NCBI GenBank assembly: GCA_045541795.1
Contig: JAZQJV010000003.1
Coordinates: 1,623-65,622, forward strand
DNA from: Patescibacteria group bacterium
GTDB taxonomy: Bacteria; Patescibacteriota; Microgenomatia; UBA1400; PJMF01
Length of the DNA: 64,000 nt
Direction: 5' to 3'
The notes under the pieces were generated by a model. It saw nothing but the letters and a program-made list of their open reading frames with translations. It made no database searches and was not told the origin of the DNA. Positions 1,159-61,145 of the stretch are shown one piece after another. Every line of letters begins with the position of its first letter. Positions within the stretch are counted from its first letter, which is position 1. The position numbers and the translations under genes were made by a program.

Positions 1159-2973
1159 TCACATCTCCCTTTTCGCCGCCACACCCAGGCAGGCAAGCGC
1201 ATCTACGAGTACCGTCTGCGTGGCGGTGGCCGCCGCCATCATCAAGCGAGAGTGAGCAGGATCGGCCGTATCCAAGAGCTTGCGCGGCTGGCTCCAGAGA
1301 GCGTGGAAAGCGGCGGCCAGCTCATACAGGTAAGTGACTAAGATATACGGCGCGCGCTCGCGCGCACTCAGAGCGATGACACCCGGATACCGGGCGAGCG
1401 CGCGAGCCAGCGGCCGCAGTACAGTGAGTTCATCACTATCAGTGATCAGGAGTGCCGTATCGGCGGCCTGAAACTGGTAATCCTCACCAAAGAGTTTGCG
1501 GTACTGGCGAGACAATGAATACGTGCGCGTGGCGGCATACTGGATGTAATAGACCGGATTGTCACGGGAGCGCTCACGCACACGCACCAGATCAAAGGTC
1601 ATCGGTGTGTTGGCAGACTTCGTGAGGATGAAAAGTTTGAGTTCGTCTACGTCTACCTGGGCGAGGACATCGCGCAAAAGTAAAAAGTTGCCGGCTCTTT
1701 TGGACATTTTGTACGGCTGACCATCGCGCTCGAGACTGACGAGTTGCATCAACTGGACTTCTAGATGAGTGCGGCCGGACGAGAGCGCACTCACGGCCGC
1801 CTGTAGGCGGGCGACATAGCCGCCGTGGTCGGCGCCAAAAAGATTAAGGAGGACGGGGTAGCCACGGTGGATTTTGTCAAAGTGGTAAGCGATGTCACTG
1901 GCAAAATAAGTGGTAGTGCCGTCTGAGCGCGCCACCACGCGGTCACGGTCATCGCCGTAAGCGGTGGAGCGGAAAATGGTCTGAAGGCCGTCATCATGGC
2001 GTGATTTTTCTTCCTCAGCTTCATTGGCGGGACCACCTAGCGGCGCTTGTAGCTCACCCTGATACAAACAGGGTAACTGCCTGGTGATGCCGTCTTCATC
2101 CGTGACGGGACACGTCTGGCTGGCCAGCTGAGCCAAGGCCTGGCGCACGCTCCCCTGCTCCACGAGTGCTGTCTCAGACGTAAAACGGTCAAATTCTAGG
2201 CCGAGCAGGGTAAGGTCGGCGCGGATCTGATCGAGCATAGAGGCGACAGCTTCATCCTTGAAACGGGCAAAAAAACTGTCTTCATCCAGATCTGCAAACT
2301 GGTCGCCATACTGATCGTGCCAGGCGGCGGCCAGCGGCAGCAAGTAGTCGCCCGGATAGCAGCCCTCAGGGACATTTTGGCCCTGGTGGCGGCCGCAAGC
2401 TTGCTGGTAGCGGAATTGCAGCGAGCGCAGCAGCGTGCGGATCTGCACGCCGTAGTCATTGACATAATACTCCGTGGTGACGCGGTAGCCGGCTTTGGTG
2501 AGCAAGCGCGCGAGCGCGAGACCCAAGACGGCGCCACGCGTGTGGCCGATATGCAAGGGGCCGGTGGGGTTGGCAGAGATGAATTCTAGTAAAATGTCTG
2601 CTGGGGCGGCCGGGTCAGCATCTGGCGGTGGGACGGCCGGCGCACCAAAACGGCGACCAGCAGTGATGACGCCGGCAAAGAAATCAGCCCAAGCGGCAGG
2701 CGTGAAGGAAATATTGACGTAAGCGCCGGCGGGCGCGGCCGACTGGACAAAAGGGAGCGCGGTAAATTTCTCCGCTAAGTCGGCAGCGATCGCCTGTGGC
2801 GGCCGGTGCAAAGCGCCGGCCAAAACCATAGCGGCATTGGTGGCGTAGTCAGCGTCTAGGTGTGCGGGTGGCAGCGAAAAGCGGAGCTTGCTGGCGACCG
2901 ACTGGAAGTCGTCGCCAGCAAAATTGGCGATGACGGCCGTAAGGTCCCTCTGGGCGCGGGCAAAAATATCCAT
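1159..2973 (-). CDS. argS: arginine--tRNA ligase
   Basis: 604 aa with HIGH motif (PLHIGHTRGAVLG), KMSK motif (KMSKRAGNF), and an anticodon-binding C-terminal domain. Confidence 0.9.
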   Translation of the reverse strand: MDIFARAQRDLTAVIANFAGDDFQSVASKLRFSLPPAHLDADYATNAAMVLAGALHRPPQAIAADLAEKFTALPFVQSAAPAGAYVNISFTPAAWADFFAGVITAGRRFGAPAVPPPDADPAAPADILLEFISANPTGPLHIGHTRGAVLGLALARLLTKAGYRVTTEYYVNDYGVQIRTLLRSLQFRYQQACGRHQGQNVPEGCYPGDYLLPLAAAWHDQYGDQFADLDEDSFFARFKDEAVASMLDQIRADLTLLGLEFDRFTSETALVEQGSVRQALAQLASQTCPVTDEDGITRQLPCLYQGELQAPLGGPANEAEEEKSRHDDGLQTIFRSTAYGDDRDRVVARSDGTTTYFASDIAYHFDKIHRGYPVLLNLFGADHGGYVARLQAAVSALSSGRTHLEVQLMQLVSLERDGQPYKMSKRAGNFLLLRDVLAQVDVDELKLFILTKSANTPMTFDLVRVRERSRDNPVYYIQYAATRTYSLSRQYRKLFGEDYQFQAADTALLITDSDELTVLRPLARALARYPGVIALSARERAPYILVTYLYELAAAFHALWSQPRKLLDTADPAHSRLMMAAATATQTVLVDALACLGVAAKREM

Positions 2974-2982: not shown

Positions 2983-3011
2983 ATTATACCACAAAACGGC
3001 CCTTTTGTCAA
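2983..3011 (-). promoter_or_regulatory. sigma70-type promoter for argS (TTGACA-17-TATAAT, TGTGG extended -10), 9 nt upstream of the ATG
   Basis: Minus-strand TTGACAAAAGGGCCGTTTTGTGGTATAAT. Near-identical to the elements at 7669 and 8603. Confidence 0.5.
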
Positions 3012-3035
3012 GAGGTAATTTCCAGATAAAAAACG

Positions 3036-4202
3036 TTATAGGCTCAGCAGGCTGTCGCCGGAGGTGGCCACACAAAGTTCGCTGTAGAGCCGCTGGAGGC
3101 GGGCGTAGTCACCACGCTGCAGGTAGCGGCCATCCACAAAACGGTCGAGCTGGCCGGCCCAGGAACCAGATTGGACGTAATATTCGGTGTCATGTAGGGC
3201 CTGCCGGCCAGCGTGCACACTGGAGCGGTAATTTTGCCCGACCCGTTTGCCGGCCTTGAGGCCGTAACGGGTGGCGATACCGCCCACAAAAGGAATGCCG
3301 TAGGCGGCGGGCTGCAAGATGGTCTTTTTGTGATTGAGCTGGAGGCACAAGTGGAGCCGCAAAAACTCGTCGATGGCGTCTCGGGCGGCCAAAAGCCGGT
3401 CTTTGTCTGGATCAAGCAGGATCATGTCATCCACATAGCGGCCGTAATACTTGATGCCGAGCACATCTTTGACGAAATGATCGAGTTCTCCCAGATAGAT
3501 ATTGGAAAAAAGTTGACTGGTGAGATTGCCGATGGGGAAGCCGCGGTCGTCTGGGACGCCAAAAAGTGTCTTGTAGGCAGGCAAATCATCCCAGCCGTGG
3601 AGGTCGCCGCGCATACAGACACGGTAGGTAGGTCGAGCGAGGATGATAATGGGCAGGAGGTAGCGGAGCAAATCCATCATTTCTGGTTTGATCCTAGATT
3701 TGGGATCGGTGTACATCCGCTCGATGATCTGGAGCATTTTGCCGTGATGGATGCTAGTGAAATAGCTCTGGATGTCGAGCTTGAGCATCCAGGCGGGGCG
3801 GGTGAAATTGTGCGTCACTCGCCGCTGGAACTCCATGGCGCGCTCCATAGCAAAATGCGTGCCTTTGCCATGGCGGCAAGAGTAAGAATCAAAAATGAAA
3901 TGCCGCTCCCAGTAGGGATTGATGGCGTCAAAAACTAAGTGATGGACCACGCGATCACGGAAGGTGGCAGCAAAAACTTCGCGCTTTTTGGGCTCGGTGA
4001 CGATAAAGGCAATACTGGGCCCCAGCTCGTAAGTACGCGCAGCCAGATCGCGGTAGAGAGTGTAGAGATTGCGCTCGAGGTCAAGCTCAAAAAGGAGCTG
4101 ATTGGCGGTGGAGCGCTTATGGCGGCGAGCCTCAAAATAAGCAGTAAAAAGACGGTCAAAAATCCACTCCTGTTCTAATCCTACGGGATGGTGAACAATC
4201 AT
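3036..4202 (-). CDS. diversity-generating retroelement (DGR) reverse transcriptase
   Basis: 388 aa with RT motifs including YVDDMILL. The motif-4 region reads GFPIGNLTSQLFSNIYL, carrying the DGR-specific I/LGxxxSQ in place of QGxxxSP. A TR/VR pair lies immediately upstream on the same strand. Confidence 0.85.
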   Translation of the reverse strand: MIVHHPVGLEQEWIFDRLFTAYFEARRHKRSTANQLLFELDLERNLYTLYRDLAARTYELGPSIAFIVTEPKKREVFAATFRDRVVHHLVFDAINPYWERHFIFDSYSCRHGKGTHFAMERAMEFQRRVTHNFTRPAWMLKLDIQSYFTSIHHGKMLQIIERMYTDPKSRIKPEMMDLLRYLLPIIILARPTYRVCMRGDLHGWDDLPAYKTLFGVPDDRGFPIGNLTSQLFSNIYLGELDHFVKDVLGIKYYGRYVDDMILLDPDKDRLLAARDAIDEFLRLHLCLQLNHKKTILQPAAYGIPFVGGIATRYGLKAGKRVGQNYRSSVHAGRQALHDTEYYVQSGSWAGQLDRFVDGRYLQRGDYARLQRLYSELCVATSGDSLLSL

Positions 4203-5197
4203 TGGTTTTCGCTATCTGATTCGAATTGATGATCGGTTTTATTTTGCCAAGCGGCGAGGCTCTCATCCACCAGTACTTTGTATTTCATGAGCGTCGCCAG
4301 GTTTTCTGCCCGGAAAGCGCCGCATTCATACGCCAGGCGTAGGAGGAAAGAGACGGTGGCCATATCATCCTGGAGGTTGGAGAGATGCCGCCTGGAGACG
4401 TACCAAGTGTGATCTTGATCAGCGTCATACAGACAGCGGAAATTGTTTTCCATATCTATGATGAGCTGTAAGATAGTGGGTTGGAGCGAGGCTTTGTAAG
4501 CATGCTGGAAATGATTGGTACGGATGAAGGCTTCTTTGAGAAATTGGAAGAGGTAATTATACGTCTCCACGTTGGCATAGATAGGCCGGAGCTTGGCGAC
4601 GTTGGAGTCTTGAGCGATACATTCTTGGGCGTACCAGCGCTGGTAAGCTTTATTGTCTATGGGCGGCAGGCCTTTGAGGACGAGGCCATAGCAGTCTCCT
4701 TTTTTACCTTCGATCAGCTCCCAGGTGGCGTTATTATCAAGCGCACGCTCAAAAACGGCAGGCAGCGAGGCGACAGGAATACCTACACGCAGCAGGCGCT
4801 CGTCTTTTTGTGGCGGCTTGTCGCCGCGTACGGTAAGCCCCGGGCGCAGCAGCGTCAGCATCCGGTAAGCGCTGACATTATACGCATTGAGAAAATCACC
4901 AGTCGTCCAGAGGTAGACTTCGTTTTTGTTCATGGATTCTGCTTTGTAGATGTATTGGAGGTCGGCCGGGATGACTTTGACGTCGAGCACCGGGAGGGTC
5001 ACGCCCTTAGCGATCAGACGCTCGTACGCATCGCGGGCGGTTTTATTCACTGGGATTTTGGGGGATTTGGGATCCGGCGAGGAGGGAAAAGTGGAAGCCT
5101 TAGAGGCTTTATCTGGCATGACTATCCTTTCTATAATAATTCTTATGCCTAATTTGTTTACTAGAAGAATTGATAGCCGCCAGATGCGAGACGGCAA
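4199..5197 (-). CDS. hypothetical protein, candidate DGR accessory factor (not Avd-like in size)
   Basis: The 332-aa ORF overlaps the RT start by 4 nt (ATGA coupling) and sits between TR and RT. No recognisable family. The true start may be an internal Met (M27). Confidence 0.45.
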   Translation of the reverse strand: MPSRIWRLSILLVNKLGIRIIIERIVMPDKASKASTFPSSPDPKSPKIPVNKTARDAYERLIAKGVTLPVLDVKVIPADLQYIYKAESMNKNEVYLWTTGDFLNAYNVSAYRMLTLLRPGLTVRGDKPPQKDERLLRVGIPVASLPAVFERALDNNATWELIEGKKGDCYGLVLKGLPPIDNKAYQRWYAQECIAQDSNVAKLRPIYANVETYNYLFQFLKEAFIRTNHFQHAYKASLQPTILQLIIDMENNFRCLYDADQDHTWYVSRRHLSNLQDDMATVSFLLRLAYECGAFRAENLATLMKYKVLVDESLAAWQNKTDHQFESDSENQ

Positions 5198-5228
5198 CTA
5201 GATAAGGAGTGCGGGCAGAATTAAATGT

Positions 5229-5412
5229 GTCTTGGAGGCAGCGCACCGAAAACCCGTTGTACTTATTGTTGTTGTTCTGCGGGTAGATATTACTAGAATT
5301 CAAGTTCAGGTTGTACGCGTTCGTCGTTGAGTTAAGAGAGCTAGACCACCAGTTGGCGTTCGAGCCTTGATTGTTCAGCGAGGAACCATTGGCGTTGCCT
5401 GAGATAGCAGAC
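5229..5412 (-). repeat. DGR template repeat (TR)
   Basis: 184 bp, identical to 6236..6419 except 16 positions. Every one is T on the plus strand (A on the coding strand) in TR. It encodes the N-rich (AAC) version of the VR peptide. Confidence 0.85.
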
Positions 5413-6219
5413 AGACTCCGGGAAACCTGGGCGAGCCGCACGGCCCAGCCAGCCGAAATCCCAACAACCTGGTGCCAGCCGGGTACACGGCTATGCTGCA
5501 GTTGATCGCTCACCCACGGGGAAGCAAAAGAAGAAAAAGAAGAAAAGAGGCAGTGACAAGTACACAGACCAACAGCCCGTGTACACACTGGTGTGGACTT
5601 ACGCGCGGATGGCATCCACCCGAACTTGTAGCGCAAGTAGATCAATAGACTCAATCCTTCATGAGCCGGCGTCAGATAACCGCCAAAAGGTCGCAGTCGG
5701 CCAAGCCGACCAGCGAGCCCGGGCCCGACTACCCGCTCCTTACCTAGTTGTACCTCTAACTTAAAGAGCCACCCAGCTGGCGCAGCCAGCGGATCGGATA
5801 GACCACCCGCCAGCTCGGCTGGGTGCCGTCTCATAACCGCTCCAGTATAGCAGACATGCTGGCTCTTGTCAAGAGTGAATTGGGAGGAGCTGGTTTTTGA
5901 TATAGTTTGTATCATTTGTCCTTTTTTGGGCGCGGCCTGCGGCGCTTAGCGCCGCAGGCCATTGCCCTGCATCTTAGAGAGTAGAAAGTTTAGCGTTGGC
6001 TAGTAGTAGTTCCTTCAGGTGCCCTACCGGGAACCCTCGGGTGTCTGGGGCTGGCGCCAGATGGACGTCGCTGGGGCGGGCCGCAATGCGTGCGGCCGCC
6101 GGAGAGCTCCTATCTGGCCTGCCGCCAGGAGTTACCTGATCTAAAGTGTTTGGTGGTAAAGTTTTTTGTTCTTTCATATTTACTTTCTTAGTGATCTGTT
6201 TGATATAGTTTGCCATAAA

Positions 6220-7455
6220 TTAATAGTCTTGGAGGCAGCGCACCGAAAACCCGTAGTACTTAGCGTTGTTGTTCTGCGGGTAGATATTACTAGAACCCAA
6301 GCCCAGGTTGTACGCGCCCGTCGTTGAGTTAAGAGAGCTAGACCACCAGAAGGCGCCCGAGCCTTGATAGTACAGCGAGGAACCATGGGCGTTGCCTGAG
6401 ATAGCAGACTTCCCCGAGGCATTCCAAGCATTGGCGCCGCTAGTCCTAAACCAATTCCATGACGTAGCACAATCGCTACTCGTACAACCATGACTCACAC
6501 TACTTCCTTGGACCGCGTCGGCCAATGCTTGGAATTCTTCTTTGGTGGGTACATGCCAACCAATGGGACAAATATCATGGGTGGCTTCAGTAGTCCCATT
6601 GGTACGGTTATTATATGTACCATTGTAATTGGCAGTGGAATTATTCATCGCCGCCTGCCAGTTATAAAGGAAACCGTCATAGTTACCGCCGTCGGCAGCA
6701 TTACGGCAGATACCGTAGTAGCCGGAGGCGACTTTGTTTTGGACGGAGCCTTGGTAGCTAGCATTGAAATCATTACCCGTGAGGCTGGCACAATTGCCAA
6801 ATTGGAGGTTTTGAGCCATCCAGCAGTGACCATCTATAAATTTGCGGATGATGTATTGCTTATTGTCACGGGCATCGGTGAGCGTGCCCACGGTGGTGTA
6901 GCCAGTGCGCGATGTGGGCGTGGCAAATTGAGCACAGGCTGCCTTGGTAAAAGATTGCATGGTGGAACCGATACAAGTACACTGCTCGGTGGCACTATTA
7001 TAGATATAGGCATCCGAGCAGTCACAGCCCACACCATTGCCGATGCATTTACTAGTGGTGGCGTCCCAGGTGCTATTGTCGCCACAGTAATTGGAGCCGG
7101 TACACTGTTGGGTGTAGGCATTGGCAGAGGTGAAGCATTTGGCGTAGGCATTGGGATAGGTGACGCCGTCGGGGCAAGCGGTGGTGGCGGCAGACGTCCA
7201 GGTGTTATCGGCCGTGCGGATGAGTTTTAGTTGGCCGCCAGTGGCGATCACAGAGGCGAGGTCGGTATCAATGAGTTTGCGGGTGGTAGTGGTAGAAGAG
7301 GCAGCGTGGGCGGTGGGAATCAACCCCTCCCCTCTGGCACTGCGTGCCACCTCCCCTCCGTAAGGGGAGGAGTTATAAGAAGTGGGGGCTATGAGGGCTC
7401 GCCCCCCCCCAACGCATTTTGGGCCACCCCAAGGATGGCGGCAAGCACCAGACAA
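6220..7455 (-). CDS. DGR target (variable) protein; Cys-rich N-region plus C-terminal FISUMP/Fib_succ_major domain (C-type lectin fold)
   Basis: Motifs HCWMAQNL, FLYNWQAA, ICPIGWHVPT, WWSSS, GFSVRCLQDY. The VR covers the last ~60 codons. The ORF as called starts at a TTG. An ATG plus signal peptide lies upstream in another frame. Confidence 0.8.
   Translation of the reverse strand: MSGACRHPWGGPKCVGGGRALIAPTSYNSSPYGGEVARSARGEGLIPTAHAASSTTTTRKLIDTDLASVIATGGQLKLIRTADNTWTSAATTACPDGVTYPNAYAKCFTSANAYTQQCTGSNYCGDNSTWDATTSKCIGNGVGCDCSDAYIYNSATEQCTCIGSTMQSFTKAACAQFATPTSRTGYTTVGTLTDARDNKQYIIRKFIDGHCWMAQNLQFGNCASLTGNDFNASYQGSVQNKVASGYYGICRNAADGGNYDGFLYNWQAAMNNSTANYNGTYNNRTNGTTEATHDICPIGWHVPTKEEFQALADAVQGSSVSHGCTSSDCATSWNWFRTSGANAWNASGKSAISGNAHGSSLYYQGSGAFWWSSSLNSTTGAYNLGLGSSNIYPQNNNAKYYGFSVRCLQDY
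6236..6419 (-). repeat. DGR variable repeat (VR) at the 3' end of the target gene
   Basis: Aligned with TR 5229..5412. Differences are A->N only: H/N, YY/NN, GAF/NAN, G/N, G/N, A/N, Y/N. Confidence 0.85.
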
Positions 7456-7514
7456 GTACCGGTGGCTATTGCCCGGTGTGAGTGTATGTTGTTTTTGTTT
7501 TTCATCTTTTTCAT
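7389..7514 (-). CDS. signal-peptide-encoding 5' segment of the DGR target gene, out of frame with the body in this assembly
   Basis: ATG at 7514 gives MKKMKNKNNIHSHRAIATGTCLVLAAILGVAQNALGGGEPS*. One extra G in the G9 tract would fuse it in frame to ...RALIAPTSYNSSPY of ORF 6220..7455. Confidence 0.4.
   Translation of the reverse strand: MKKMKNKNNIHSHRAIATGTCLVLAAILGVAQNALGGGEPS
7402..7410 (-). other. homopolymeric tract (C9 on plus strand, G9 on coding strand); candidate slipped-strand phase-variation site or homopolymer sequencing error
   Basis: Read directly at 7401-7410 as gccccccccc. With G10 the signal peptide and lectin body are in frame. Confidence 0.6.
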
Positions 7515-7576
7515 ATGTTTTACCGCAATATGCGAGGCGGCTCTTCCTACTTTGTAACTATTTTAGATGTGAGATG

Positions 7577-7605
7577 ATATTAGCACGGGTGGCGGGATTT
7601 GTCAA
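7577..7605 (-). promoter_or_regulatory. candidate promoter of the DGR target gene (TTGACA-17-TAATAT)
   Basis: Minus strand reads cccTTGACAaatcccgccacccgtgcTAATAT, about 60 nt upstream of ATG 7514. Confidence 0.35.
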
Positions 7606-7668
7606 GGGGATCGCGGAGCTAAGATGAGATGGCGGGCGTTTGGGTGATTAGAGGCTGGATATTGCCTC

Positions 7669-7697
7669 TTGACAAAATGGTAGTTTTGTGGTATAAT
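7669..7697 (+). promoter_or_regulatory. consensus promoter TTGACAAAATGGTAGTTTTGTGGTATAAT with no downstream plus-strand gene
   Basis: Perfect -35/-10 with a 17-nt spacer. It is one member of a family of three near-identical 29-bp elements. It points antisense to the tRNA region. Confidence 0.45.
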
Positions 7698-7739
7698 GGG
7701 GTAAGTCCTTAGAGATTTGAGGACGGTTCTTATAAAAAT

Positions 7740-7858
7740 CGATCAATTCTGGGAAAATTAAGTCCTGCTAGGCGGCAATTTTCTGTAGAAATGCAAGTTA
7801 TCGGATTGCGTTTCTCGTTAAAAGGTGAAAATTGCTGGTGTCGGCTGACAACGCCTCC
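7740..7858 (-). pseudogene. degenerate tRNA-like fragment (5' acceptor, D stem, CCGATAA hairpin, variable arm; no T arm or 3' acceptor)
   Basis: It begins GGAGGCGTTGTCA, identical to the first 13 nt of the tRNA at 8004. It shares the loop CCGATAA and CGCCTAGCAGG with that tRNA. Confidence 0.3.
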
Positions 7859-7922
7859 TGGAATTGGTCGATTTTTGCGTTTGGATATCTTTGACCCCAC
7901 CGGGTGAACCCAATTACGCCAG

Positions 7923-8004
7923 CGGAGGCGATGGGCTTCGAACCCACAAGCCCTGCTAGGGCGACGACTTATCGGATCGTGTGTCTTTCCAATGACAACG
8001 CCTC
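7923..8004 (-). tRNA. tRNA, class II-like (long variable arm); anticodon loop CCGATAA, identity unresolved
   Basis: Acceptor GGAGGCG/CGCCTCC plus discriminator G. D arm GTC-ATTGGAAA-GAC. T arm GTGGG-TTCGAAG-CCCAT. Variable stem CCCT/AGGG. Its own TATAAT lies about 30 nt upstream on the minus strand. Confidence 0.5.
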
Positions 8005-8088
8005 CGTGAGTCCACCCGATAAGGTAAAGATGATGTATTATATCATGGTTTGATGGCATTTTGACGGAGAAATGCCCCGCCCCCCCCT

Positions 8089-8463
8089 CTAGTCTTCTAG
8101 CGCCTGGGTGAGCTGTGCCTCCGCCGAGGCGAGCTGGGCGGGACTGGTGGCCTCCATGATGGCGGAGACGAGGTCTTTGAGGAAGCTGGCGGAAATGGTG
8201 GCCACCTGGGTGGTTTCTAGGCGGGGTGAATCAATGACCACCGTCTGGGCGGCAGGCTGACGGGTGGAAGTTGCACTGGCGGAGGTGAGGTCTTGCTGGT
8301 CGGCGAGGCTGGAAATTTCTACCAGTAGGCGTGACCACTCCGGCGTGAAGATCTCAATGATGGCGCCCGTGGAGACGGCGGCGATCGCCAAAGAGGCGAG
8401 CGCCTCGAGAGCGATTTTTTTGAGTGAGTGGGCGGCGCCTGCTGGCGTGATAGATGTGGTCAT
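8089..8463 (-). CDS. hypothetical protein (~124 aa, hydrophobic N-terminal segment)
   Basis: The ORF 8089..8649 is trimmed to the Met at 8463. That Met is preceded by TATAAT plus 6 nt (leaderless). Confidence 0.4.
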   Translation of the reverse strand: MTTSITPAGAAHSLKKIALEALASLAIAAVSTGAIIEIFTPEWSRLLVEISSLADQQDLTSASATSTRQPAAQTVVIDSPRLETTQVATISASFLKDLVSAIMEATSPAQLASAEAQLTQALED

Positions 8464-8507
8464 GGGGGTATTATAGCACAATGTTGGCGGCGGGGAAAGG
8501 GGAAGAT

Positions 8508-8543
8508 TGGCGGTGTCATCTTGGGGTTGTCCAGGATGGTGCC
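8508..8543 (+). repeat. 36-bp direct repeat, copy 1 (TGGCGGTGTCATCTTGGGGTTGTCCAGGATGGTGCC)
   Basis: Identical copy at 8657..8692. The two copies bracket the promoter at 8603..8631. Confidence 0.6.
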
Positions 8544-8602
8544 TGAATAACGCCAAACACATTTGAGACTGGAAAAGGAACTCAACTGGAATTTTTAATA
8601 TC

Positions 8603-8631
8603 TTGACAAAATGGCAGTTTTGTGATATAAT
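8603..8631 (+). promoter_or_regulatory. consensus promoter TTGACAAAATGGCAGTTTTGTGATATAAT driving ORF 8717
   Basis: TTGACA-17-TATAAT. The spacer contains the inverted repeat ACAAAA/TTTTGT. Confidence 0.6.
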
Positions 8632-8656: not shown

Positions 8657-8692
8657 TGGCGGTGTCATCTTGGGGTTGTCCAGGATGGTGCC
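8657..8692 (+). repeat. 36-bp direct repeat, copy 2, in the 5' UTR of ORF 8717
   Basis: Identical to 8508..8543. Confidence 0.6.
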
Positions 8693-8716: not shown

Positions 8717-9106
8717 ATGCAGCGAGAAAAGAGAGGTAAAAAATCTGGTGGTTTAGTGTTGAGGAAACATGAGCAGTCAACGGTAGAGTTTTTGCAGGAA
8801 AAGGGTTTCAATTTGAAAGTGATACCTCCCAGTAACGTGACAGGAGTCAAAACTCCCGACCTTTTGATCTCTGGTATCCCATGGGAGATGAAATCCATTA
8901 CTAAGTCAAACACAAAGACAATCGAAAGAAGCTTTGGGCACGGACTCAAGCAAGCACCAAACTTGATATATGACTTGCGCAACCTCAAAACTGACGAAGC
9001 GGAGCAAGCAGTTAGGATATTGCAATGGTGCATAAAGAAGTTTCACCACGCGAAACAGCTCATGGTTATTACCAAAGATAGACAACTGCTCAAGTTGGAA
9101 AAGTGA
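8717..9106 (+). CDS. small PD-(D/E)xK-type nuclease-like protein (orphan)
   Basis: 129 aa. TPDLLISGIPWEMKS supplies a PD...ExK catalytic triad pattern. No partner gene is evident. Confidence 0.5.
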   Translation: MQREKRGKKSGGLVLRKHEQSTVEFLQEKGFNLKVIPPSNVTGVKTPDLLISGIPWEMKSITKSNTKTIERSFGHGLKQAPNLIYDLRNLKTDEAEQAVRILQWCIKKFHHAKQLMVITKDRQLLKLEK

Positions 9107-9156
9107 CCATCCATTCCCCACTTGCATTTTGCGGGAAATATGGCATAATATACGGT

Positions 9157-10071
9157 ATGCCGAGTAACAACGCTTACGACTTTTTGCGTCAATCCATTGC
9201 GGGCGGCGCTGGCGCGCCCGCTCGTGTGCCCGCGCCGGCGGCGCGCACCACGCCAGGGGGCGCACCCGCTGATTACTCCGCCATCCAACCGGAGCAGCCG
9301 CGCTACCGCGCGCCTGGCGAGCGGGAGCGCGAGGCAGAACTGACGCTAGATGACCTCCCCCCCGTCCCGCCGATTTTGACCCTGCCGCCAGGCGTGGATC
9401 TGCTGGACTTTGTAGGCCGGGTGGAGCGGGCTTATGATATACATTATACGGATGATAAATATGTAGATCCTAGTCTTCGCGGGGCGGCCGGCAACAGTGA
9501 GCACGCGCTAGACCTGCTGGATGATGCGGCCGTACGGATGAGTTTTGCTGACTACGCGGCTGCCAGCGATCTGTTTTCTTTGTGCGTGATACTGGCGCCA
9601 AATTATTTTTATCATTTTTGTTTGGCCTCGGCGCGCTATCATATGGGAGATTTTGATGGTACACTCGCCTACTCGCGGCTGGCTTTGGAAGGTATCCGCA
9701 AAAACGAAGAATTGAGTGACGGCATTCATTTTTACATGGATCAAATGGACTTTGTAGACGCTTTTTACTTCCAGTTTATCGAGAGTTTGATTTTTACAGG
9801 CAATCTGGACGAGGCCAAAAGCATGACGGATTTTGTAGTGAGTGGCAACGTCTTCCAGGTGGCCCAAAGTTACCTGGATCTGGCGTGTGATTACTCGCTG
9901 ATCGGTGAGTTGGCTTACGCCGCTAAGCTTATAGACCGGCTGATGCCGTATATCGGAGAGCTGGATGAAAAACGGCGCGCAATACTTTTAGCCTGGATAC
10001 CAAATATTTTGGCCGGTAAACCGGGCGAAAAACTAGTGGTGGACGGCGTGGACTTGACAAAACGGGGATAG
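9157..10071 (+). CDS. hypothetical protein
   Basis: The ORF 9103..10071 is trimmed to MPSNNAYDF at 9157. That start sits 7 nt downstream of TGGCATAAT (leaderless). Confidence 0.5.
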   Translation: MPSNNAYDFLRQSIAGGAGAPARVPAPAARTTPGGAPADYSAIQPEQPRYRAPGEREREAELTLDDLPPVPPILTLPPGVDLLDFVGRVERAYDIHYTDDKYVDPSLRGAAGNSEHALDLLDDAAVRMSFADYAAASDLFSLCVILAPNYFYHFCLASARYHMGDFDGTLAYSRLALEGIRKNEELSDGIHFYMDQMDFVDAFYFQFIESLIFTGNLDEAKSMTDFVVSGNVFQVAQSYLDLACDYSLIGELAYAAKLIDRLMPYIGELDEKRRAILLAWIPNILAGKPGEKLVVDGVDLTKRG

Positions 10072-10115
10072 TGTGATATAATAATATAGGATATGATAGA
10101 AAAAGTAACGACAAG

Positions 10116-13100
10116 ATGACAACAGAAGGAGCCAGATTATCAGCACAGGATCTAGGATTACCAGGTTGGAATTACGATCCCGAGCTGTCTAGACATGATG
10201 TTTTAACGGATACCGAATTGACTGAGGCATATGATGACAATGAGCGCCATGACGAAATAAATAAACTACGAAGTACGTACGAGCGTATCACTCATGAGTA
10301 TCAGCAGGATGGCGATACCGAGCTTTTGCTATCAGAGCTAAAGGTCCTATCTGCCTCAGCAGAGAAATTAACTAAAAAGTACCGTGAGCAGCGCATGGCA
10401 ATTTTGAAGAGCACTGAAAAAGACCCGGATGAAGTTTCACTTGCTTCTGCTCATTTAGCTTTCACAGCGATAAAGGATGTACATGACCTCACGGATAAAA
10501 TCAACGGGATCGTGGACACCGTCAGCGGCGAGGCAACAGCGCAAAAAGCGCCACTGGGATCGGAAACGAGGGCCGCTGGCGAGCCGACCAAGACAGAGCA
10601 GGCAGAGCCGGAAGTAAAACCGGCGGCAGAATCAACGCCAGAAGAAAAGCCGGCCGACAATGATACCGCCAAAACCGAGACTCAGCAAGAGAGCAAACCG
10701 GCCGAGAAGGAAGAACGGCCGCAAGAAAAACAAGAGGAAAAACCGGAAGAAAAGCTACCTTTCCAGCCAGAGCAAGTGAAGGTAAAAGGTGCAGACGGCA
10801 AAGAAAGACTGCTCAAACCTGAAGAGTTGGCTTGGTGGCAACCCGGCAAGACAGTAGAATGTATCAGTGGCTGGGATAAAATCGGCAGTGTGGCCGACGG
10901 CGGAATAGATAACGGCAGTCATATGTTCCGACTAGATAGCGGGACAGGACAGCTGATACTGCGCACGGCAGACGTGCCACCTACAGACAATGATAGCGTG
11001 GTGGATGAGCGTTTCCGCCCGCGGCGATTGGGAGAGATAAAAGAAATACAGGTACTCACGAGCGAGTGGAGCCAGACCAAGCAAGACGAGGCCGCACGGC
11101 GAAATGAGTATGAAGTGCTAGTCCGGACAAAAGACGGACGGGAATACCGTTTTGTGAGTACAGACAGCGAGATGTCACGTGAGCAAGCGCGAGTGGCTTA
11201 TGAGCAAGAGCAACAGGAGCAGCGTCAGGCCGCCCAGGCGCGAGAAGAAGAGCGGACTAAAGCTATCGAAGGCCACGAAAAAGAGCTGGCGATGGCGGAG
11301 CTTTTGGGGATCAAGGAAGATCTACACCAGATCAGCGAGGCGGCCACTATCGGCCTGCGTGACGACGGCAGCAACCGGCTGGATGAGAACAGTTTTGACA
11401 GTCTCCACCGAGAAATCCGCCGGAGCGTACTCACCAGGCGTCTGGAGACAGTGACAGCCATGCTAGAAGGTGGCGCGAGCGAGGACGAGCGGCGGGAGCT
11501 GGTAGCCGAGCAGGCGGCAATCCGTGAAGAGTTAAGTAAACTCAATGCTGCCGGGACGGCGCTAGAATTTGGTGAAATCAAAGATAAAAACGGGAAATTG
11601 ATCCTGAAGGCACGCGAGTACCAAAATTACCGTGAAGCGCTCAAAGGGGAAATCAAGGCCAGATCTACCCAACTAGAGCGTTACGCCGAGCGCGCCAACA
11701 AAAAAGATGGCCTCAAACCGCATGAGAGGTACGCTTTTGAGGAAGCACGCAAGGCTCTGGATGAGGCGATCGCCGTACAGCTAGAATATGAAGCCATAGC
11801 CGAGTATGATAGTTACCAGGCGCGGATAAATGCTATCAGCGAGGCGACGATCACTTACAAAGGTAGTGATAATAAAGACGTGACGGTGGATTTGCGCTCA
11901 GACGAAAAGAGCAAAAACGGAGAGATTTTATCTTTGCAGGGCAAACTTGCCGAGCTGGGTGACCAGATCGCGGCGGCGCAAGATTTCATCACTCGGATAG
12001 AGCAAAACCCTAATGCCCGTTATGACAAGCAGACGGTGGCAGAGGTAAAAGAAAAACGAGAACTGATCAAAGCCAAAAACAAGCAAGCTGAGCAAATCCG
12101 TGAAGTAATGCGCCAGCTGGAAGAAAAAGCCAGGAATTTGATGACTTTGCGTCAGGTCTTTTACCTACAAGCGCACGGTCGGGTGGAAGAAGAAGATGCC
12201 GCTCGCAGTGAGATGGGTATCGCTTATGACGTGACCAACGGCAATAATGAGTTTTTTAGCTATGCACTCACGGTGGCTTTAGGCAGCAGCGGTATCCAGG
12301 AGCAGTTAAAAGACTCTACGCTCAATGCAGACGGCCTGGCAGACATTTTGATCGGCCGGATGACACAAATTCATGACGACGCCGAGCGAGAATCCTCCCG
12401 TGGCAGCGGTATCGCTCGGGCGGTAAACTCTTTGCGGATGCTGAGTTTGTCTAGTACTTTCATTGATAAGGCTTACTACGGGATCGCAGGCAACGATGGC
12501 GTTTTTTCCAATAAACTCACTAGTGAGATGCTCATGATGTCTGGCGCGCAGCTGCTGCAAGCCAAGCGCAAGGCGCTAGAAGCCGTGCGCTACCGGGCGG
12601 GAGATTATGGTAGCACCAGCATAGACGATCAAGAAAATGCGCGCTGGCAAAAATTGAGAGCGGCCGAGGAAAATTGGGCAGCGAAAGACGCTGGCTTGAT
12701 GCCCAGAGTGATGGCCGCCGAGGATAATCTTGCTGAGCAAGACAGGAAACATCCGGCGGGATATAAGATCACGGCTGAGATACCGGTGGGTTATGAGTCC
12801 ATAGACCAAGCGATCGCCAGAGATGAGAATGCCCAGCGTGGTCAACAGCGCCGACGGGAAGCAGTAGGGCAGGCCAAGGGACAGCTAGACGACACGGTGG
12901 CGAGCCGGCTGGAGGACTTGCAGCCATACCGGGCAGAAGTCGATAGATACCGGGAAGATGTTTTCGCCAAGTATGACCGGTTGATGAGCGAGTGGGAGAC
13001 GGAAAAGAAGGCACTGAAAGCACAGGTAGACGCCAAGCAGACAGAAATCCAGGGTCTACTCAAGCAAAAGCAAGCACTGGAGGATGAGCGGAGACGTCGG

Positions 13101-15569
13101 CTTTTCCAGCTGGATCAACGGGCAGCCGCTGCCAGTGGTGAAAGTTTGCGCGAGATACAGGATGACCGGGCAGAAGTGATCACCGAGTACTCCGGCGGAC
13201 TAGAGGAAATAAACGAAAAACTGGCGACAACGTACCAAGAGTTGACCGCTCTACAGCCGGAAAAACTGGAAAGTGATGTCAGTTTCCAGGATTGGTTGGC
13301 AGAAAAAGGAATGCAACTTGATGCCGAAGAACTGGAAATTTTGCAGCCGTACTTAGACAAGATGGCCGAGGCCAACCGAGCATTCCAGACGCAGCGGAAA
13401 TTTGTGTCTCAAGTGAAATCCACGTGGCTTTTTACCGTGGTGGGGTCTTTTAACAACAGCAAGATGAGCTTGACGGCGGGTACCAATGAAATGGGTGGCT
13501 TTTTTGGCCGGCTAGATCAGACGAGCCACTTACGGCCAGACGGCGTGTCTAATCCAGAGGTGATGGAGGCAAATGATCTGTGGAATAAAAACTTTGGCAC
13601 GGGGAAGTTTGACGCTGAGGCGCAGCGTTACTTGGGAGAAAATGGGGACTTACAGCGGATAGTAGCAATGTGTGTACAGGAGCTGCGCAACCCGCGGAGT
13701 AAATACTGGGCGGGCAATAGTGACCTGAGTCAGAGTGACGGCGTGCGCAAGCTGGTGGATGAGATGTTTGACACGTACTGCAATACTGAGGGCCGGGAGA
13801 CGATCGGCAAGATGAGTAAGGAGCAGCGAGAGTTTGATAAGCAGCTGGTACTGATAAAAATTGCACGTGATGACTTGGTGCGTAAATACGCCGTGGAGGC
13901 TTACGGCGTGTGGTTTACCGCCCTGAAAAACAAGCAGTGGGACAAGCTGACGCATAGCGGCGTGCTGATGGCACTGACGTATGGACTGGTGAGGGGGAAA
14001 AATGGCAGCATGCGGGCGATGTTGGATTTTATAGATCTGGATGAGATCACGGCTAAAATACAGGCGCAAATAGATAAGTATTATCCGGAGGGCGATCCAG
14101 AAGAAGAAAGGCAATATCGCGGGCTTCAAGAAAAAATCGAGACGGAAGAGTTGATTATGCGCGAAGAAATGCGCAAGAATAATGAAGCCGGCCGCTTGCA
14201 GGCGGAAGAAAGAATTAGTAAGTTGCGCCGGAGTGTCGGAGACTTAGGAAAACGGTACGATCAGATGTCATCACTGGATCTATTGAAGGCGAGAGTACAG
14301 AGACACAAACTTTATTTAGATGCTGCCTTCCCCCATGGAACTTTAGATGAACGTGCTCAAATACGCCAGCAAGCCGTCGATACGAAACGCGAAAATGACG
14401 CAATTATACGTAGAGAACTAGAAAAATCTCAAGAAAACAAGCCTGGCTTAATGAGGAGGATATGGCGGGTGTTTGTTGGCAGCGAGAATCAGCCATCTGT
14501 ACGGGAAGAAACTGTAAAATATCAGTATACCTTTTCGGAAGAGGATTATATAAATACTTTCCTGAAATCTGGGGACGTGGAACTTACTGATCAGCAAATT
14601 CGCGAATTGGTACAGCGAGCCAGAGAACGTGGGGATATAGTTGACGGCCAAACTACCAGATCATCCACTGACTCAAATGGGACAACGAAAACTGAAGTAG
14701 TTGGCTCGCAAACAGTTGAATTTAAACCAATTAAACTCAATCTTAAAGCTGATTATTCATTTAAACCGAGGAAATTTAGTGATGATGCCCCTACAATGGA
14801 TGCTTACCTCAATCAACCTCCAGAAGGCAGGCAAGCAGCCGCCGATTGGCTCGATGCTCATGACGCTTTTGGCGAGATCATCGCTATGTGCAGCAGTCCG
14901 ATAGACAAAGGCTTGATAGAAGACCCGGAAAAACTGGTGGAAGCGATCAATAAGATCAATACCAATTTCTCACGGATTGCCTCGATCGCCCTAGATAATA
15001 GTGATGCTAATATTGCAGGTTTGCCTGGATCGGACGTAAAATATAACTACATGCGCGAAATGGCGGAGGCAGCATATTGCGGCTGGATAGAGAATGTGTT
15101 GCACACAGTTGGTGGGGCGCATCCCAGGCGTTTAATTGATGATGAAGGGATGCCAACCGATAGCAATAAAAAGTACGTCAGAGATTTTAATTCGATCCTA
15201 GCCGCTGTAAGGAGTTCTTTAGGCGACTTGGGTAGCAATTCGAGGAATAAATCAATTTATAACGAGAAAATTCATGCAATCCTAGATCTGAACTCTAAAT
15301 ATTATATGGGTCCAGAACAAGATATATATGAGCCAGATCCTTATGGGGAAGCTGCGTACGCATTCAGATATAAGGATTTTGTGGATGGTAATTTATTGCA
15401 ATATCTAGTAATGGACGTCGGTAAAAAAGTTGGTTATGCTGACTCTCATGGTACTTTGTTTGCGAAATGGAATGAACAAAGTAAGAGGATGGAATTGATA
15501 CCAGGTATGAGAATGCCAGATGAAATCTTACAGGTACTGAGAGAACCACTTACAGATTCTGATGGCTAA
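10116..15569 (+). CDS. giant acidic coiled-coil protein (1817 aa), hypothetical
   Basis: A single uninterrupted ORF. The N-terminus is E/K/P-rich with low complexity, followed by extensive heptad-like segments. No signal peptide or TM segment. Confidence 0.6.
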   Translation: MTTEGARLSAQDLGLPGWNYDPELSRHDVLTDTELTEAYDDNERHDEINKLRSTYERITHEYQQDGDTELLLSELKVLSASAEKLTKKYREQRMAILKSTEKDPDEVSLASAHLAFTAIKDVHDLTDKINGIVDTVSGEATAQKAPLGSETRAAGEPTKTEQAEPEVKPAAESTPEEKPADNDTAKTETQQESKPAEKEERPQEKQEEKPEEKLPFQPEQVKVKGADGKERLLKPEELAWWQPGKTVECISGWDKIGSVADGGIDNGSHMFRLDSGTGQLILRTADVPPTDNDSVVDERFRPRRLGEIKEIQVLTSEWSQTKQDEAARRNEYEVLVRTKDGREYRFVSTDSEMSREQARVAYEQEQQEQRQAAQAREEERTKAIEGHEKELAMAELLGIKEDLHQISEAATIGLRDDGSNRLDENSFDSLHREIRRSVLTRRLETVTAMLEGGASEDERRELVAEQAAIREELSKLNAAGTALEFGEIKDKNGKLILKAREYQNYREALKGEIKARSTQLERYAERANKKDGLKPHERYAFEEARKALDEAIAVQLEYEAIAEYDSYQARINAISEATITYKGSDNKDVTVDLRSDEKSKNGEILSLQGKLAELGDQIAAAQDFITRIEQNPNARYDKQTVAEVKEKRELIKAKNKQAEQIREVMRQLEEKARNLMTLRQVFYLQAHGRVEEEDAARSEMGIAYDVTNGNNEFFSYALTVALGSSGIQEQLKDSTLNADGLADILIGRMTQIHDDAERESSRGSGIARAVNSLRMLSLSSTFIDKAYYGIAGNDGVFSNKLTSEMLMMSGAQLLQAKRKALEAVRYRAGDYGSTSIDDQENARWQKLRAAEENWAAKDAGLMPRVMAAEDNLAEQDRKHPAGYKITAEIPVGYESIDQAIARDENAQRGQQRRREAVGQAKGQLDDTVASRLEDLQPYRAEVDRYREDVFAKYDRLMSEWETEKKALKAQVDAKQTEIQGLLKQKQALEDERRRRLFQLDQRAAAASGESLREIQDDRAEVITEYSGGLEEINEKLATTYQELTALQPEKLESDVSFQDWLAEKGMQLDAEELEILQPYLDKMAEANRAFQTQRKFVSQVKSTWLFTVVGSFNNSKMSLTAGTNEMGGFFGRLDQTSHLRPDGVSNPEVMEANDLWNKNFGTGKFDAEAQRYLGENGDLQRIVAMCVQELRNPRSKYWAGNSDLSQSDGVRKLVDEMFDTYCNTEGRETIGKMSKEQREFDKQLVLIKIARDDLVRKYAVEAYGVWFTALKNKQWDKLTHSGVLMALTYGLVRGKNGSMRAMLDFIDLDEITAKIQAQIDKYYPEGDPEEERQYRGLQEKIETEELIMREEMRKNNEAGRLQAEERISKLRRSVGDLGKRYDQMSSLDLLKARVQRHKLYLDAAFPHGTLDERAQIRQQAVDTKRENDAIIRRELEKSQENKPGLMRRIWRVFVGSENQPSVREETVKYQYTFSEEDYINTFLKSGDVELTDQQIRELVQRARERGDIVDGQTTRSSTDSNGTTKTEVVGSQTVEFKPIKLNLKADYSFKPRKFSDDAPTMDAYLNQPPEGRQAAADWLDAHDAFGEIIAMCSSPIDKGLIEDPEKLVEAINKINTNFSRIASIALDNSDANIAGLPGSDVKYNYMREMAEAAYCGWIENVLHTVGGAHPRRLIDDEGMPTDSNKKYVRDFNSILAAVRSSLGDLGSNSRNKSIYNEKIHAILDLNSKYYMGPEQDIYEPDPYGEAAYAFRYKDFVDGNLLQYLVMDVGKKVGYADSHGTLFAKWNEQSKRMELIPGMRMPDEILQVLREPLTDSDG

Positions 15570-20675: not shown

Positions 20676-20703
20676 TTGACGGATTGCGGTTTTGTGGTAT
20701 AAT
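20676..20703 (+). promoter_or_regulatory. promoter-like TTGACG-16-TATAAT followed 33 nt later by a hairpin; possible short antisense or sRNA transcript
   Basis: cTTGACGgattgcggttttgtggTATAAT, then the hairpin at 20736..20755. Confidence 0.3.
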
Positions 20704-20735
20704 AAGGTTGTATTTTGGAGATTTTCTCCCAATTC

Positions 20736-20755
20736 CCCCTGATGCGAGTCAGGGG
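20736..20755. terminator. hairpin CCCCTGA-tgcgag-TCAGGGG at the 3' end of the mazF-like gene
   Basis: 7-bp perfect stem, followed by tcaaattttgtc on the plus strand. Confidence 0.4.
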
Positions 20756-21162
20756 TCAAATTTTGTCTGGTAATACGACATGAATTTATCCTGCACAGTA
20801 TGTAGGTCAGTGTCGTCTATCCGTCCCAGACAGCTATACAAACGGAGAGTGCTTATAGTCCTCACTTGTAATAATGCTGCCCAGCTGGCCCGACCATGAA
20901 AATTAAACTTCACGTAAGAGCAAGTAGTTTTCTCCTGTGTCGTCAGCGGGATTACGGTACAGCTCAAGTTGTTATGCTTTTTATAAATTAGTACGGGGCG
21001 CGAGAACTTATTACTTTTGCCGTTCATTTCCACGCCGATGTTTTCACCCAGGGCACACCACCAGACTTCACCTTCATGGATTGTGGGATAATGCGGGTCG
21101 CGTGTCGCCAGCCGAGTTTTTAGCTCATACCATTGCTTTAATCTAATTTCCTTTTCTTGCAT
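20749..21162 (-). CDS. MazF/PemK-family endoribonuclease toxin-like protein, with no adjacent antitoxin ORF
   Basis: GEVWWCALGENIGVEMNGK...RPVLIY...TVIPLTTQEK follows the PemK pattern (GxIxxVxF...GxEQxGxRPxLVxS...PxTTQ). Confidence 0.55.
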   Translation of the reverse strand: MQEKEIRLKQWYELKTRLATRDPHYPTIHEGEVWWCALGENIGVEMNGKSNKFSRPVLIYKKHNNLSCTVIPLTTQEKTTCSYVKFNFHGRASWAALLQVRTISTLRLYSCLGRIDDTDLHTVQDKFMSYYQTKFDP

Positions 21163-24770: not shown

Positions 24771-24832
24771 GTTTACAAAAGTAGGTAAAAATAGTAAGTT
24801 TTGTAAATAGAAATGGAATTTGGTTACAAAAA
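24771..24832 (+). repeat. 62-bp direct repeat, copy 1 (GTTTACAAAAGTAGGTAAAAATAGTAAGTTTTGTAAATAGAAATGGAATTTGGTTACAAAAA)
   Basis: Exact second copy at 26106..26167. The pair flanks the AAA ATPase gene and its promoter. Confidence 0.7.
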
Positions 24833-24833
24833 C

Positions 24834-24862
24834 TTGACATTTTCCCGCGGCCGTGTTATAAT
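24834..24862 (+). promoter_or_regulatory. promoter TTGACA-17-TATAAT for the AAA ATPase gene (leaderless, 7 nt to ATG)
   Basis: cTTGACAttttcccgcggccgtgtTATAATtacatatATG. Confidence 0.55.
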
Positions 24863-24869
24863 TACATAT

Positions 24870-46619: not shown

Positions 46620-46713
46620 AGAACTCGGTCCGCAGACCGTACCGCCAGCCGTTTGCTTTCAAAACGGTAGCAATATAGTGTTTATTATATCATTAATCAG
46701 TGCTTTTGTCAAG

Positions 46714-51261: not shown

Positions 51262-51269
51262 GAGGGCGA

Positions 51270-51298
51270 TTATAGCACGACTGAGGCTTGTTGTCAAG
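51270..51298 (-). promoter_or_regulatory. promoter TTGACA-17-TATAAT, 7 nt upstream of the ATPase ATG
   Basis: Minus strand TTGACAacaagcctcagtcgtgcTATAATcgccctcATG. Confidence 0.5.
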
Positions 51299-60618: not shown

Positions 60619-60660
60619 AAAAAAGTGTGGTATAATAGGCTGTCTTAGTTAGAAGGACAT

Positions 60661-60810
60661 ATGAAAAGAACGTGGCAACCTAAAAAAAAGAAACGGATGC
60701 GGAAACATGGTTTCCTGAAACGGATGATGACGGCCAAAGGTCGGCAGGTATTAAAACGCCGCCGAGATAAAGGTCGGGCGAGATTGACTGTGGTCCGCAA
60801 AGGAGTGTAA
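60661..60810 (+). CDS. rpmH: 50S ribosomal protein L34
   Basis: 49-aa [52 protein letters not shown]. It is absent from the ORF track because it is under 60 aa. An RBS gaagga lies upstream. Confidence 0.8.
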
Positions 60811-61023: not shown

Positions 61024-61037
61024 GTACATCCACGCCT

Positions 61038-61136: not shown

Positions 61137-61145
61137 TTATCTGGT

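Follow-up and report, generated by a model that had tools for sequence, protein, structure and literature searches.

In the window, i.e. the whole stretch of 64,000 nucleotides that was analyzed, three promoter-like elements of 29 bp raise the question why sequences in front of non-paralogous transcription units (argS, a region without ORF and a CdiA_C-like gene) should resemble each other even in the spacer between the -35 and -10 hexamers. A preliminary description took this as a sign of a duplicated, mobile promoter cassette or of an operator. Its coordinates and strands for the 29-mers are correct (2983-3011, minus; 7669-7697, plus; 8603-8631, plus) and none of the three elements is expected by chance, as the number of matches in dinucleotide-preserving shuffles was zero. 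The elements, referred to as copies 1 to 3, and the adjoining features are as follows:

1159..2973, minus strand: argS (arginyl-tRNA synthetase), with the Pfam domains Arg_tRNA_synt_N, tRNA-synt_1d and DALR_1; homologues were found
2983..3025, minus strand: full promoter of copy 1, with UP-like CTGGAAATTACCTC, -35 TTGACA (3006-3011), 17-nt spacer AAAGGGCCGTTTTGTGG and -10 TATAAT (2983-2988)
7655..7697, plus strand: full promoter of copy 2, CTGGATATTGCCTC followed by TTGACA-17-TATAAT; no ORF downstream
7703..7880, plus strand: predicted transcript of copy 2, with a 5' hairpin (7705-7724) followed by a long, imperfect one of ~145 nt with a U-run at its end
8508..8543, plus strand: upstream copy of a perfect 36-nt direct repeat, which can form a hairpin
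8586..8631, plus strand: promoter of copy 3, CTGGAATTTTTAATATC followed by TTGACA-17-TATAAT
8657..8692, plus strand: downstream copy of the 36-nt repeat, within the ~85-nt 5' leader predicted from copy 3; folds as a hairpin of 14-17 bp
8717..9106, plus strand: 129-aa gene with a CdiA_C domain (toxin-like; Pfam PF18451, 1.1e-13), the first ORF 3' of copy 3

Each copy carries both hexamers in perfect form (6/6 for TTGACA and 6/6 for TATAAT), which bears out their designation as promoter elements, together with a 17-bp spacer and the TRTG extended -10 as TGTG at -17..-14. The reported identity of 26 of 29 positions applies to pairwise comparisons (26/29 for copies 1 and 2, 27/29 for copies 2 and 3, 26/29 for copies 1 and 3) but is slightly high for the three-way alignment, in which 25 of 29 positions agree. 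Similarly, the CTC in front of the element holds for copies 1 and 2, whereas copy 3 has ATC, so that TC alone is common to all three. The internal inverted repeat ACAAAA-N6-TTTTGT was found in all copies as described, and at zero mismatches it does not occur again in the window. Copies 1 and 2 are alike over 43 nt (88%), and copies 2 and 3 are 94% identical over 31 nt with agreement at four of the five central spacer bases. The 5.7 kb of DNA in which all three are located is visibly rearranged; besides the 36-nt repeats it contains a retroelement, a toxin-like cassette and a tRNA-like segment in duplicate.

The placement of the elements suits promoters. Copy 1 is oriented towards argS, as had been proposed, and the ATG at 2973 is located 10 nt past its -10 element; judged from this spacing, copy 1 would drive argS as a nearly leaderless mRNA with a leader of ~3 nt. 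Copy 3 lies 85 nt in front of the CdiA_C-like ORF and may start an mRNA with a hairpin leader of about this length. Copy 2 precedes a strongly folding region with a U-run at its end (MFE -65.4 kcal/mol, z = -5.6; only -37.2 for the opposite strand), and the fold suggests that it starts a structured non-coding RNA of ~175 nt. This predicted transcript runs antisense to a degenerate version of the adjacent tRNA-like gene. No Rfam family was assigned to it, the sole match being a sub-threshold tRNA-Sec on the neighbouring tRNA-like gene, and homologues were absent among the comparison loci, so the RNA is not conserved there.

Three weaker relatives of the copies in the same window had been overlooked, as had the 43-nt likeness of copies 1 and 2 and the fact that these two form an inverted repeat around the retroelement:

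10054..10082, plus strand: fourth family member, TTGACAAAACGGGGATAGTGTGATATAAT, upstream of a 1817-aa ORF (10116-15569)
20676..20703, plus strand: member with a 16-nt spacer and the same GTTTTGTGGTATAAT as the copies; no ORF downstream
46684..46712, minus strand: weaker member, TTGACAAAAGCACTGATTAATGATATAAT, directly after guaA

The second of these converges on a PemK/MazF-like gene (20749-21162, minus strand).

A comparison with other genomes revealed that the shared spacer and its flanks belong to a lineage-wide extended consensus, approximately ctGGAAATTGCCT-CTTGACAAAA-N9-TGTGgTATAAT. Relatives with this extended motif were found via protein homology or a generic 29-mer scan: it occurs three times in L015 and once in L101 of RGIG2556 (ArgRS 59% identical) and once in L100 (ArgRS 68% identical), and partial versions are present in L104 and L106. 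A lineage-specific pattern with 28 specified bases, ATTRCCTCTTGACAAAA-N9-TGTGRTATAAT, was run on JGI environmental contigs and matched 19 of them (29-56% G+C), with several family members per contig, up to five, mostly ahead of tRNA arrays; predicted from this placement, the family there mostly drives tRNA operons. To describe the consensus per position we used 29 "bystander" promoters sampled independently of the lineage-specific pattern. These have C-36 in 93%, A-29 in 93%, A-28 in 86%, T-17 in 90% and G-16 in 62% of cases, and AAATT at -45..-41 in 62-76%. Because the bystander promoters prefer the same bases, 18 of the 25 three-way identical positions represent family consensus. The remaining identical bases (G-21 and TTT at -20..-18) correspond to a recurrent T-tract variant, GTTTTGTG, which is also found in L015, L110, L111, L113, L114 and L115.

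The similarity between genomes, as judged from these alignments, is equal to that within the genome. Copy 1 matches the promoter at L101-17913 at 22 of 23 positions over -49..-27, where copies 1 and 2 share 21 of 23, and copy 3 matches L015-2420 at 25/29, close to the value for copies 1 and 3. The 31-mer of copy 3 recurs without a mismatch in the Clostridia MAG L023, which has no other DNA or protein similarity to the window. A looser 29-mer pattern gave one match each in 99 genomes of a GTDB scan, the source genome being outside the set, ahead of unrelated genes. Among the copies the likeness ends at the -10 element on one side and at about -50 on the other. No conserved transcribed sequence was found 3' of the promoters: two L015 copies share ATrGGATAT...ACTGACTGGAC, and the copies in the window have nothing in common with them.

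Taken together, each of the three elements is probably a near-perfect housekeeping promoter (sigma-70/sigma-A type) of this lineage, independent of the other two. A proximal block that is A/T-rich and UP-like (AAATT, -45..-41) and ends in a C-rich stretch (CCTC, -39..-36) would be followed by the -35 TTGACA, a 17-nt spacer composed of A-tract, G+C-rich centre, T-tract and G-rich TRTGn extended -10, and finally the -10 TATAAT, with every module at or near its optimum. The RNA polymerase holoenzyme would contact all of these modules, and selection for strong constitutive initiation would keep ~45 nt nearly constant, which may be the reason that unrelated promoters resemble the copies. The anatomy of the elements, the distribution of the family and the consensus per position are direct observations, from which we infer promoter activity, start sites and a likeness caused by selection instead of copying. 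[quoted passage not shown] The earlier conclusion from spacer conservation to a mobile cassette or operator is not supported in this light: C-36, AAA at -29..-27, TRTG at -17..-14 and the upstream AAATT/C-rich block belong to the consensus of many promoters in distant genomes. It had also been argued that a spacer shared by many promoters would point to a global regulator. Flanks and spacer ends are indeed widely shared, but the spacer centre is free, and this combination indicates recognition by RNA polymerase and not a regulator or mobility.

The elements therefore probably are an ordinary promoter type, stereotyped and used in many places by this and other lineages. All three copies correspond to sigma-A/sigma-70 promoters with TRTGn extended -10 in TTGACA, the 17-nt spacer, T-17 G-16 T-15 G-14 and TATAAT. 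TRTGn is the "-16 region" of Gram-positive promoters, reportedly described in Bacillus subtilis work by Helmann and by Voskuil and Chambliss. In comparison with such promoters the consensus is unusually tight here and continues both farther upstream (AAATTGCCTC) and in the spacer, where AAA follows the -35 element, throughout an entire uncultured lineage. The E. coli rrnB P1 promoter, which reads ...AAATTTCCTCTTGTCA, is an example of a full UP-element plus core promoter with an A/T-rich proximal block and C-rich bases before the -35 element, and the family studied here appears to have the same arrangement (AAATTGCCTCTTGACA); the resemblance concerns the sequence and not alpha-CTD contact or growth-rate control. 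TRTGn extended -10 elements are common in Firmicutes, and across bacteria a four-region spacer (AT-tract, slightly GC-rich, AT-tract, G-rich extended -10) and an enrichment of cytosine at the 3' end of the UP element have been described (PMC12641261, NAR 2025). This is in line with AAA(T) / GGCAG / TTTT / GTGG in the spacer here and with the C enrichment; however, the first AT-tract in that study is mainly thymine and not adenine, and the lineage is not among its species. Publications dealing specifically with the promoter consensus of candidate phyla or Saccharibacteria were not found.

It is possible, but rather unlikely, that one or more of the elements, with copy 3 and/or copy 1 as the best candidates, came from another copy through duplication or short-patch recombination in the course of local rearrangements; argS or the toxin-like cassette would thereby have come under a strong promoter that already existed. 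The long similarities of copies 1 and 2 and of copies 2 and 3 would fit such a capture. The argS upstream regions of four relatives are without the -35/UP half, and copy 1 is therefore new at this position. In addition, GG at -25/-24, present in all three copies and in the 10054 member at a site where the wider family has no preference, and the T-tract go beyond what the family consensus demands. The T-tract variant makes up 4 of ~10 strong promoters in the window versus roughly 12-22% elsewhere, which counts against independent promoters, but this enrichment is not significant when TTYTGTGG variants are counted (estimate, p ~0.1). The agreement of copies 2 and 3 in the spacer centre and the position of all three copies in rearranged DNA likewise weigh against independence. 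The perfect 36-nt direct repeats around copy 3, presented before as the mark of an inserted cassette, are real and 100% identical. Inspection of the flanks of copies 1 and 2, however, revealed no flanking repeats or other insertion signature, and as these copies have nothing comparable the repeats are not a signature of the element family. Outside the promoter core the 113 nt between the repeats have no homology to the other copies, and homologues of the 36-nt repeat were not detected among the comparison loci. Against copying also speak the end of homology at the limits of the functional promoter and the equally similar elements in distant and in unrelated genomes. The published definition of putative mobile promoters (Matus-Garcia, Nijveen and van Passel 2012; PMC3575422) asks for at least 80% identity over at least 50 nt when upstream regions within a genome are compared. 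The copies have in common with them highly similar sequences before non-homologous genes in one genome, but the likeness here covers 31-43 nt and drops to 40/51 (78%) when copies 1 and 2 are extended to 51 nt, is confined to the region contacted by RNA polymerase, and is matched in other genomes. A MITE- or IS-type element with an outward promoter (Correia-like; ~100-300 bp, with terminal inverted repeats, target-site duplication and full-length homology) was rejected, as the homology between copies comprises only the 31-43 nt of the promoter.

An active diversity-generating retroelement (DGR) lies between copies 1 and 2, apparently by coincidence. The idea that these copies are 43-nt terminal inverted repeats with outward promoters of a transposable DGR unit (2983-7697) is hardly credible, even though the arms (2983-3025 / 7655-7697) are 88% complementary and enclose RT, TR, VR and target genes exactly. 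A target-site duplication was not found outside the arms, there is no discontinuity in G+C, related DGRs in L103, L104 and L106 are without such flanking repeats, the arm sequence recurs elsewhere as single promoters, and the cassette contains no transposase or integrase. A DGR cassette with promoter-bearing terminal repeats was discarded for the first three of these reasons.

Very unlikely, too, is a dimeric regulator that binds the ACAAAA-N6-TTTTGT palindrome over the -35 element and spacer and co-controls argS, the copy-2 RNA, the toxin-like gene and the 20676 transcript. The 6+6 repeat is exact in the three copies and restricted to them within the window, copy 1 has palindromic symmetry at 16 of 18 positions, and the arms are kept while the centre varies, likewise in L015, L113 and L114. 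Nevertheless, three of the six bases per arm are -35 and TRTG consensus and the others A/T tracts, the palindrome has no consistent extension past its arms, and most family members, including tRNA-operon promoters with the same job, carry AAAA instead of TTTT. Moreover, Pfam scans detected no gene for a DNA-binding regulator adjoining any copy, the downstream genes are functionally incoherent, and the same shape is present at the 99 unrelated promoters in other phyla. A conservation of the inverted repeat independent of the RNA polymerase consensus was not found. We also regard it as improbable that the T-tract subset (copies 1-3, the 20676 member and some tRNA-operon promoters elsewhere) is non-neutral, its A4-N6-T4 palindrome being read by a lineage-specific factor or marking promoters copied in short patches; copy 2 would then express a new hairpin RNA of ~175 nt that is antisense in trans to the atypical tRNA-like gene. 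Short-patch spread, if true, would date from the same rearrangements that brought the retroelement and the toxin cassette to this site.

With the housekeeping promoter as the preferred explanation, the likeness of the three elements needs neither a jumping cassette nor a special regulator, because they are very good matches to a stereotyped promoter. Near-identical promoters, spacer included, can come from a tight lineage-wide consensus, and a cross-genome comparison is needed before they are read as mobile cassettes or operators. The ~45-nt consensus can serve to predict promoters, and is itself a candidate for a strong promoter, in an uncultured lineage in which many genes are leaderless. 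It also draws attention to 7703-7880 and about 20710-20770, two predicted orphan transcripts that may be small RNAs.

The three near-identical 29-bp promoter elements (copies 1 to 3) of the preliminary description are present in the window, and looser searches added further members of the same family, which is defined by an extended TTGACA-17-TATAAT consensus with a TRTG extended -10 motif and an upstream A/T- and C-rich block:

2983-3011, minus strand: copy 1
7669-7697, plus strand: copy 2
8603-8631, plus strand: copy 3
10054-10082, plus strand: family relative
46684-46712, minus strand: family relative
20676-20703, plus strand: family relative

Dinucleotide-preserving shuffles of the window yielded no match resembling the 29-mer. 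The initial count of 26 shared positions holds for pairs of copies (26-27/29), but all three agree at 25/29, and the CTC said to precede each element is found at copies 1 and 2 but is ATC at copy 3. All three copies contain a perfect ACAAAA-N6-TTTTGT inverted repeat, which has no further occurrence in the window. Each copy combines a perfect TTGACA-17-TATAAT with TGTG at -17 to -14; the spacer is arranged as AAA-TGGCAG-TTTT-GTGG. The copies are probably independent near-optimal promoters. The conserved parts all correspond to known contacts of the RNA polymerase, namely a proximal A/T block that resembles a UP element and becomes C-rich towards its 3' end, the -35 element, the TRTG extended -10 and the -10 element. 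This is in line with the reported enrichment of C at the 3' end of UP elements and with a spacer, found across bacteria and under selection, that consists of an AT-tract, a slightly GC-rich part, a second AT-tract and a G-rich extended -10 (PMC12641261), a four-region layout that the spacer described here fits.

The same extended element is found in related genomes. RGIG2556, whose ArgRS is 59% identical, carries it three times in locus L015 and once in locus L101, one example being ATTGCCTCTTGACAAAAGTGATGTTTTGTGATATAAT; a relative with a 68% identical ArgRS (L100) has one, and L104 and L106 contain partial versions. In L015, two of the family promoters have a transcribed motif in common (ATrGGATAT ... 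ACTGACTGGAC.AA.C.AAATCAT.AC; 2449-2500 and 7634-7590, minus strand), and each is directed against the 3' end of a convergent gene, a tRNA-Arg gene for one and a 570-aa ORF for the other. The extended-form pattern ATTRCCTCTTGACAAAA-N9-TGTGRTATAAT matched 19 contigs from JGI metagenomes (29-56% G+C) with up to five family members apiece, most of them within dense tRNA arrays and, in two contigs (L115 and L119), with RNase P RNA. The arrays are very dense in L111, L113, L114, L115, L119 and L121, with about 30 tRNAs in 8 kb in L111. The IMG/VR matches L126 and L127 are equal in length to contigs L124 and L119, which suggests that two of the JGI contigs are also catalogued as viral.

To describe the consensus, we used 29 promoters from contigs other than the window, which were chosen by hexamers and TG alone and are not matched by the search pattern. 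In these promoters the most frequent bases were AAATT at -45 to -41 (62-76%), C at -36 (93%), A at -29 (93%), A at -28 (86%), T at -17 (90%) and G at -16 (62%), which indicates that the lineage consensus accounts for 18 of the 25 positions at which all three copies agree; it also includes the upstream CTGGAAATTGCCTC. The remaining shared bases are GG at -25/-24, G at -21 and TTT at -20 to -18. This T-tract is a minority variant, which L015 also has and which precedes tRNA genes in L110, L111, L113, L114 and L115; AAAAG is the more common form at the site.

The preliminary description had proposed a mobile or duplicated promoter cassette or, alternatively, an operator. That one promoter was copied into another site is possible but doubtful. 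The GG and the T-tract common to the copies, the agreement of copies 2 and 3 at four of five central spacer bases, an argS without the -35 half in four relatives and the direct repeats of 36 nt on either side of copy 3 (8508-8543 and 8657-8692), which are indeed 100% identical and confined to these two sites, speak for such an event, but copies 1 and 2 are 88% identical over 43 nt, from CTGGA to TATAAT, and outside these limits of similarity the flanks of the copies are unrelated. Over 51 nt the likeness is 78%, below the published mobile-promoter criterion of at least 80% over at least 50 nt (PMC3575422). Moreover, copy 1 matches the L101 promoter at 17913 at 22/23 positions over -49 to -27 and copy 2 at 21/23, and copy 3 matches the L015 promoter at 2420 at 25/29 and copy 1 at 26/29. 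As likeness between genomes reaches the same level, it is not evidence of recent common origin. The 31-mer of copy 3 has an exact match in L023, a Clostridia MAG with no other similarity to the window, and the looser pattern TTGACAAAA-N5-GTTTTGTGnTATAAT was found in 99 genomes, one match each, ahead of unrelated genes.

The inverted repeat arises because ACA of the -35 element and TGT of the TRTG motif are reverse complements, each lengthened by an A/T tract. An operator bound by a regulator at ACAAAA-N6-TTTTGT is unlikely: the exact repeat in all copies is what such a site would show, but polymerase consensus makes up half of each arm, most family members do without the T-tract, no copy has a regulator gene next to it, and the genes that would be controlled are unrelated.

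Copies 1 and 2 point outward from an apparently active diversity-generating retroelement (3036-7455, minus strand):

3036-4202, minus strand: reverse-transcriptase gene
5229-5412: template repeat of 184 nt
6226-6409: variable repeat
6220-7455, minus strand: target gene with a Fib_succ_major domain, its 3' end formed by the variable repeat
5844-5872, minus strand: internal promoter
7577-7605, minus strand: internal promoter

Both repeats are 91% identical, with mismatches only at template adenines. The position of the two copies would suit a mobile unit with promoter-bearing terminal repeats, but this is highly improbable, as there is neither a target duplication nor a G+C break, and no such pair of promoters encloses the related retroelements in L103, L104 and L106.

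The three promoters, which we regard as probably independent, would start transcription near 2976, 7704 and 8638 and differ in their inferred outputs. No ORF follows copy 2; the plus strand of 7703-7885 is predicted to fold into a 5' hairpin and a long hairpin of about 145 nt ending in a U-run (-65.4 kcal/mol, z = -5.6, versus -37.2 for the opposite strand), and this predicted transcript of about 175 nt matches no Rfam family. Next to it lies an atypical tRNA-like gene (7922-8005, minus strand) with a clean cloverleaf, a long variable arm and the anticodon loop CCGAUAA, in which GAU is the anticodon and position 33 is a C. ARAGORN labels it tRNA-Ile; Rfam gives a sub-threshold tRNA-Sec (31.6 bits, cutoff 47 bits) and no tRNA above threshold across the 64-kb window. 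A degenerate partial duplicate of this gene (7740-7866, minus strand; common stretches GGAGGCGTTGTCA, ATCCGATAA and CCTAGCAGG) lies within the predicted copy-2 transcript and antisense to it.

Copy 3 is located 85 nt upstream of a 129-aa CdiA_C-domain ORF, and one of the 36-nt repeats falls within its leader and is predicted to fold into a 14-17 bp hairpin. The stand-alone CdiA_C ORF and the 322-aa ORF behind it together span 8717-10071 (plus strand), and giant ORFs of 1817 aa (10116-15569, plus strand; no Pfam match) and 4574 aa (30132-43856, minus strand) are present; these may represent a polymorphic toxin or surface-protein region. At 20676-20770 (plus strand) a strong orphan promoter precedes two hairpins and a T-run but no ORF. 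It faces a convergent toxin gene of PemK/MazF-like type (20749-21162, minus strand) and could be the source of a small RNA or of antisense RNA. The window also contains three paralogous AAA_14/DUF4143 ATPase genes (15-1154, 24813-26090 and 50065-51297), and dnaN (plus) adjoins a divergent dnaA (minus) at 59503-62888, which makes the region around 59-63 kb the probable site of the replication origin.

Taken together, the observation is real, its explanation is ordinary and the copies are a known kind of element. Copy 1 occupies the 62-nt gap between the reverse-transcriptase gene and argS, whose ATG starts 10 nt past the -10 element, so that the mRNA leader would be about 3 nt. In many genes of the window TATAAT is located 7-10 nt before the ATG, often with TGTG and without a Shine-Dalgarno sequence (e.g., 8462, 18738/18760, 24834, 51269 and 59076), and leaderless expression therefore looks usual here. 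Leaderless mRNAs seem to be common both here and in the relatives of this organism (L101, L103, L104, L128 and L129).
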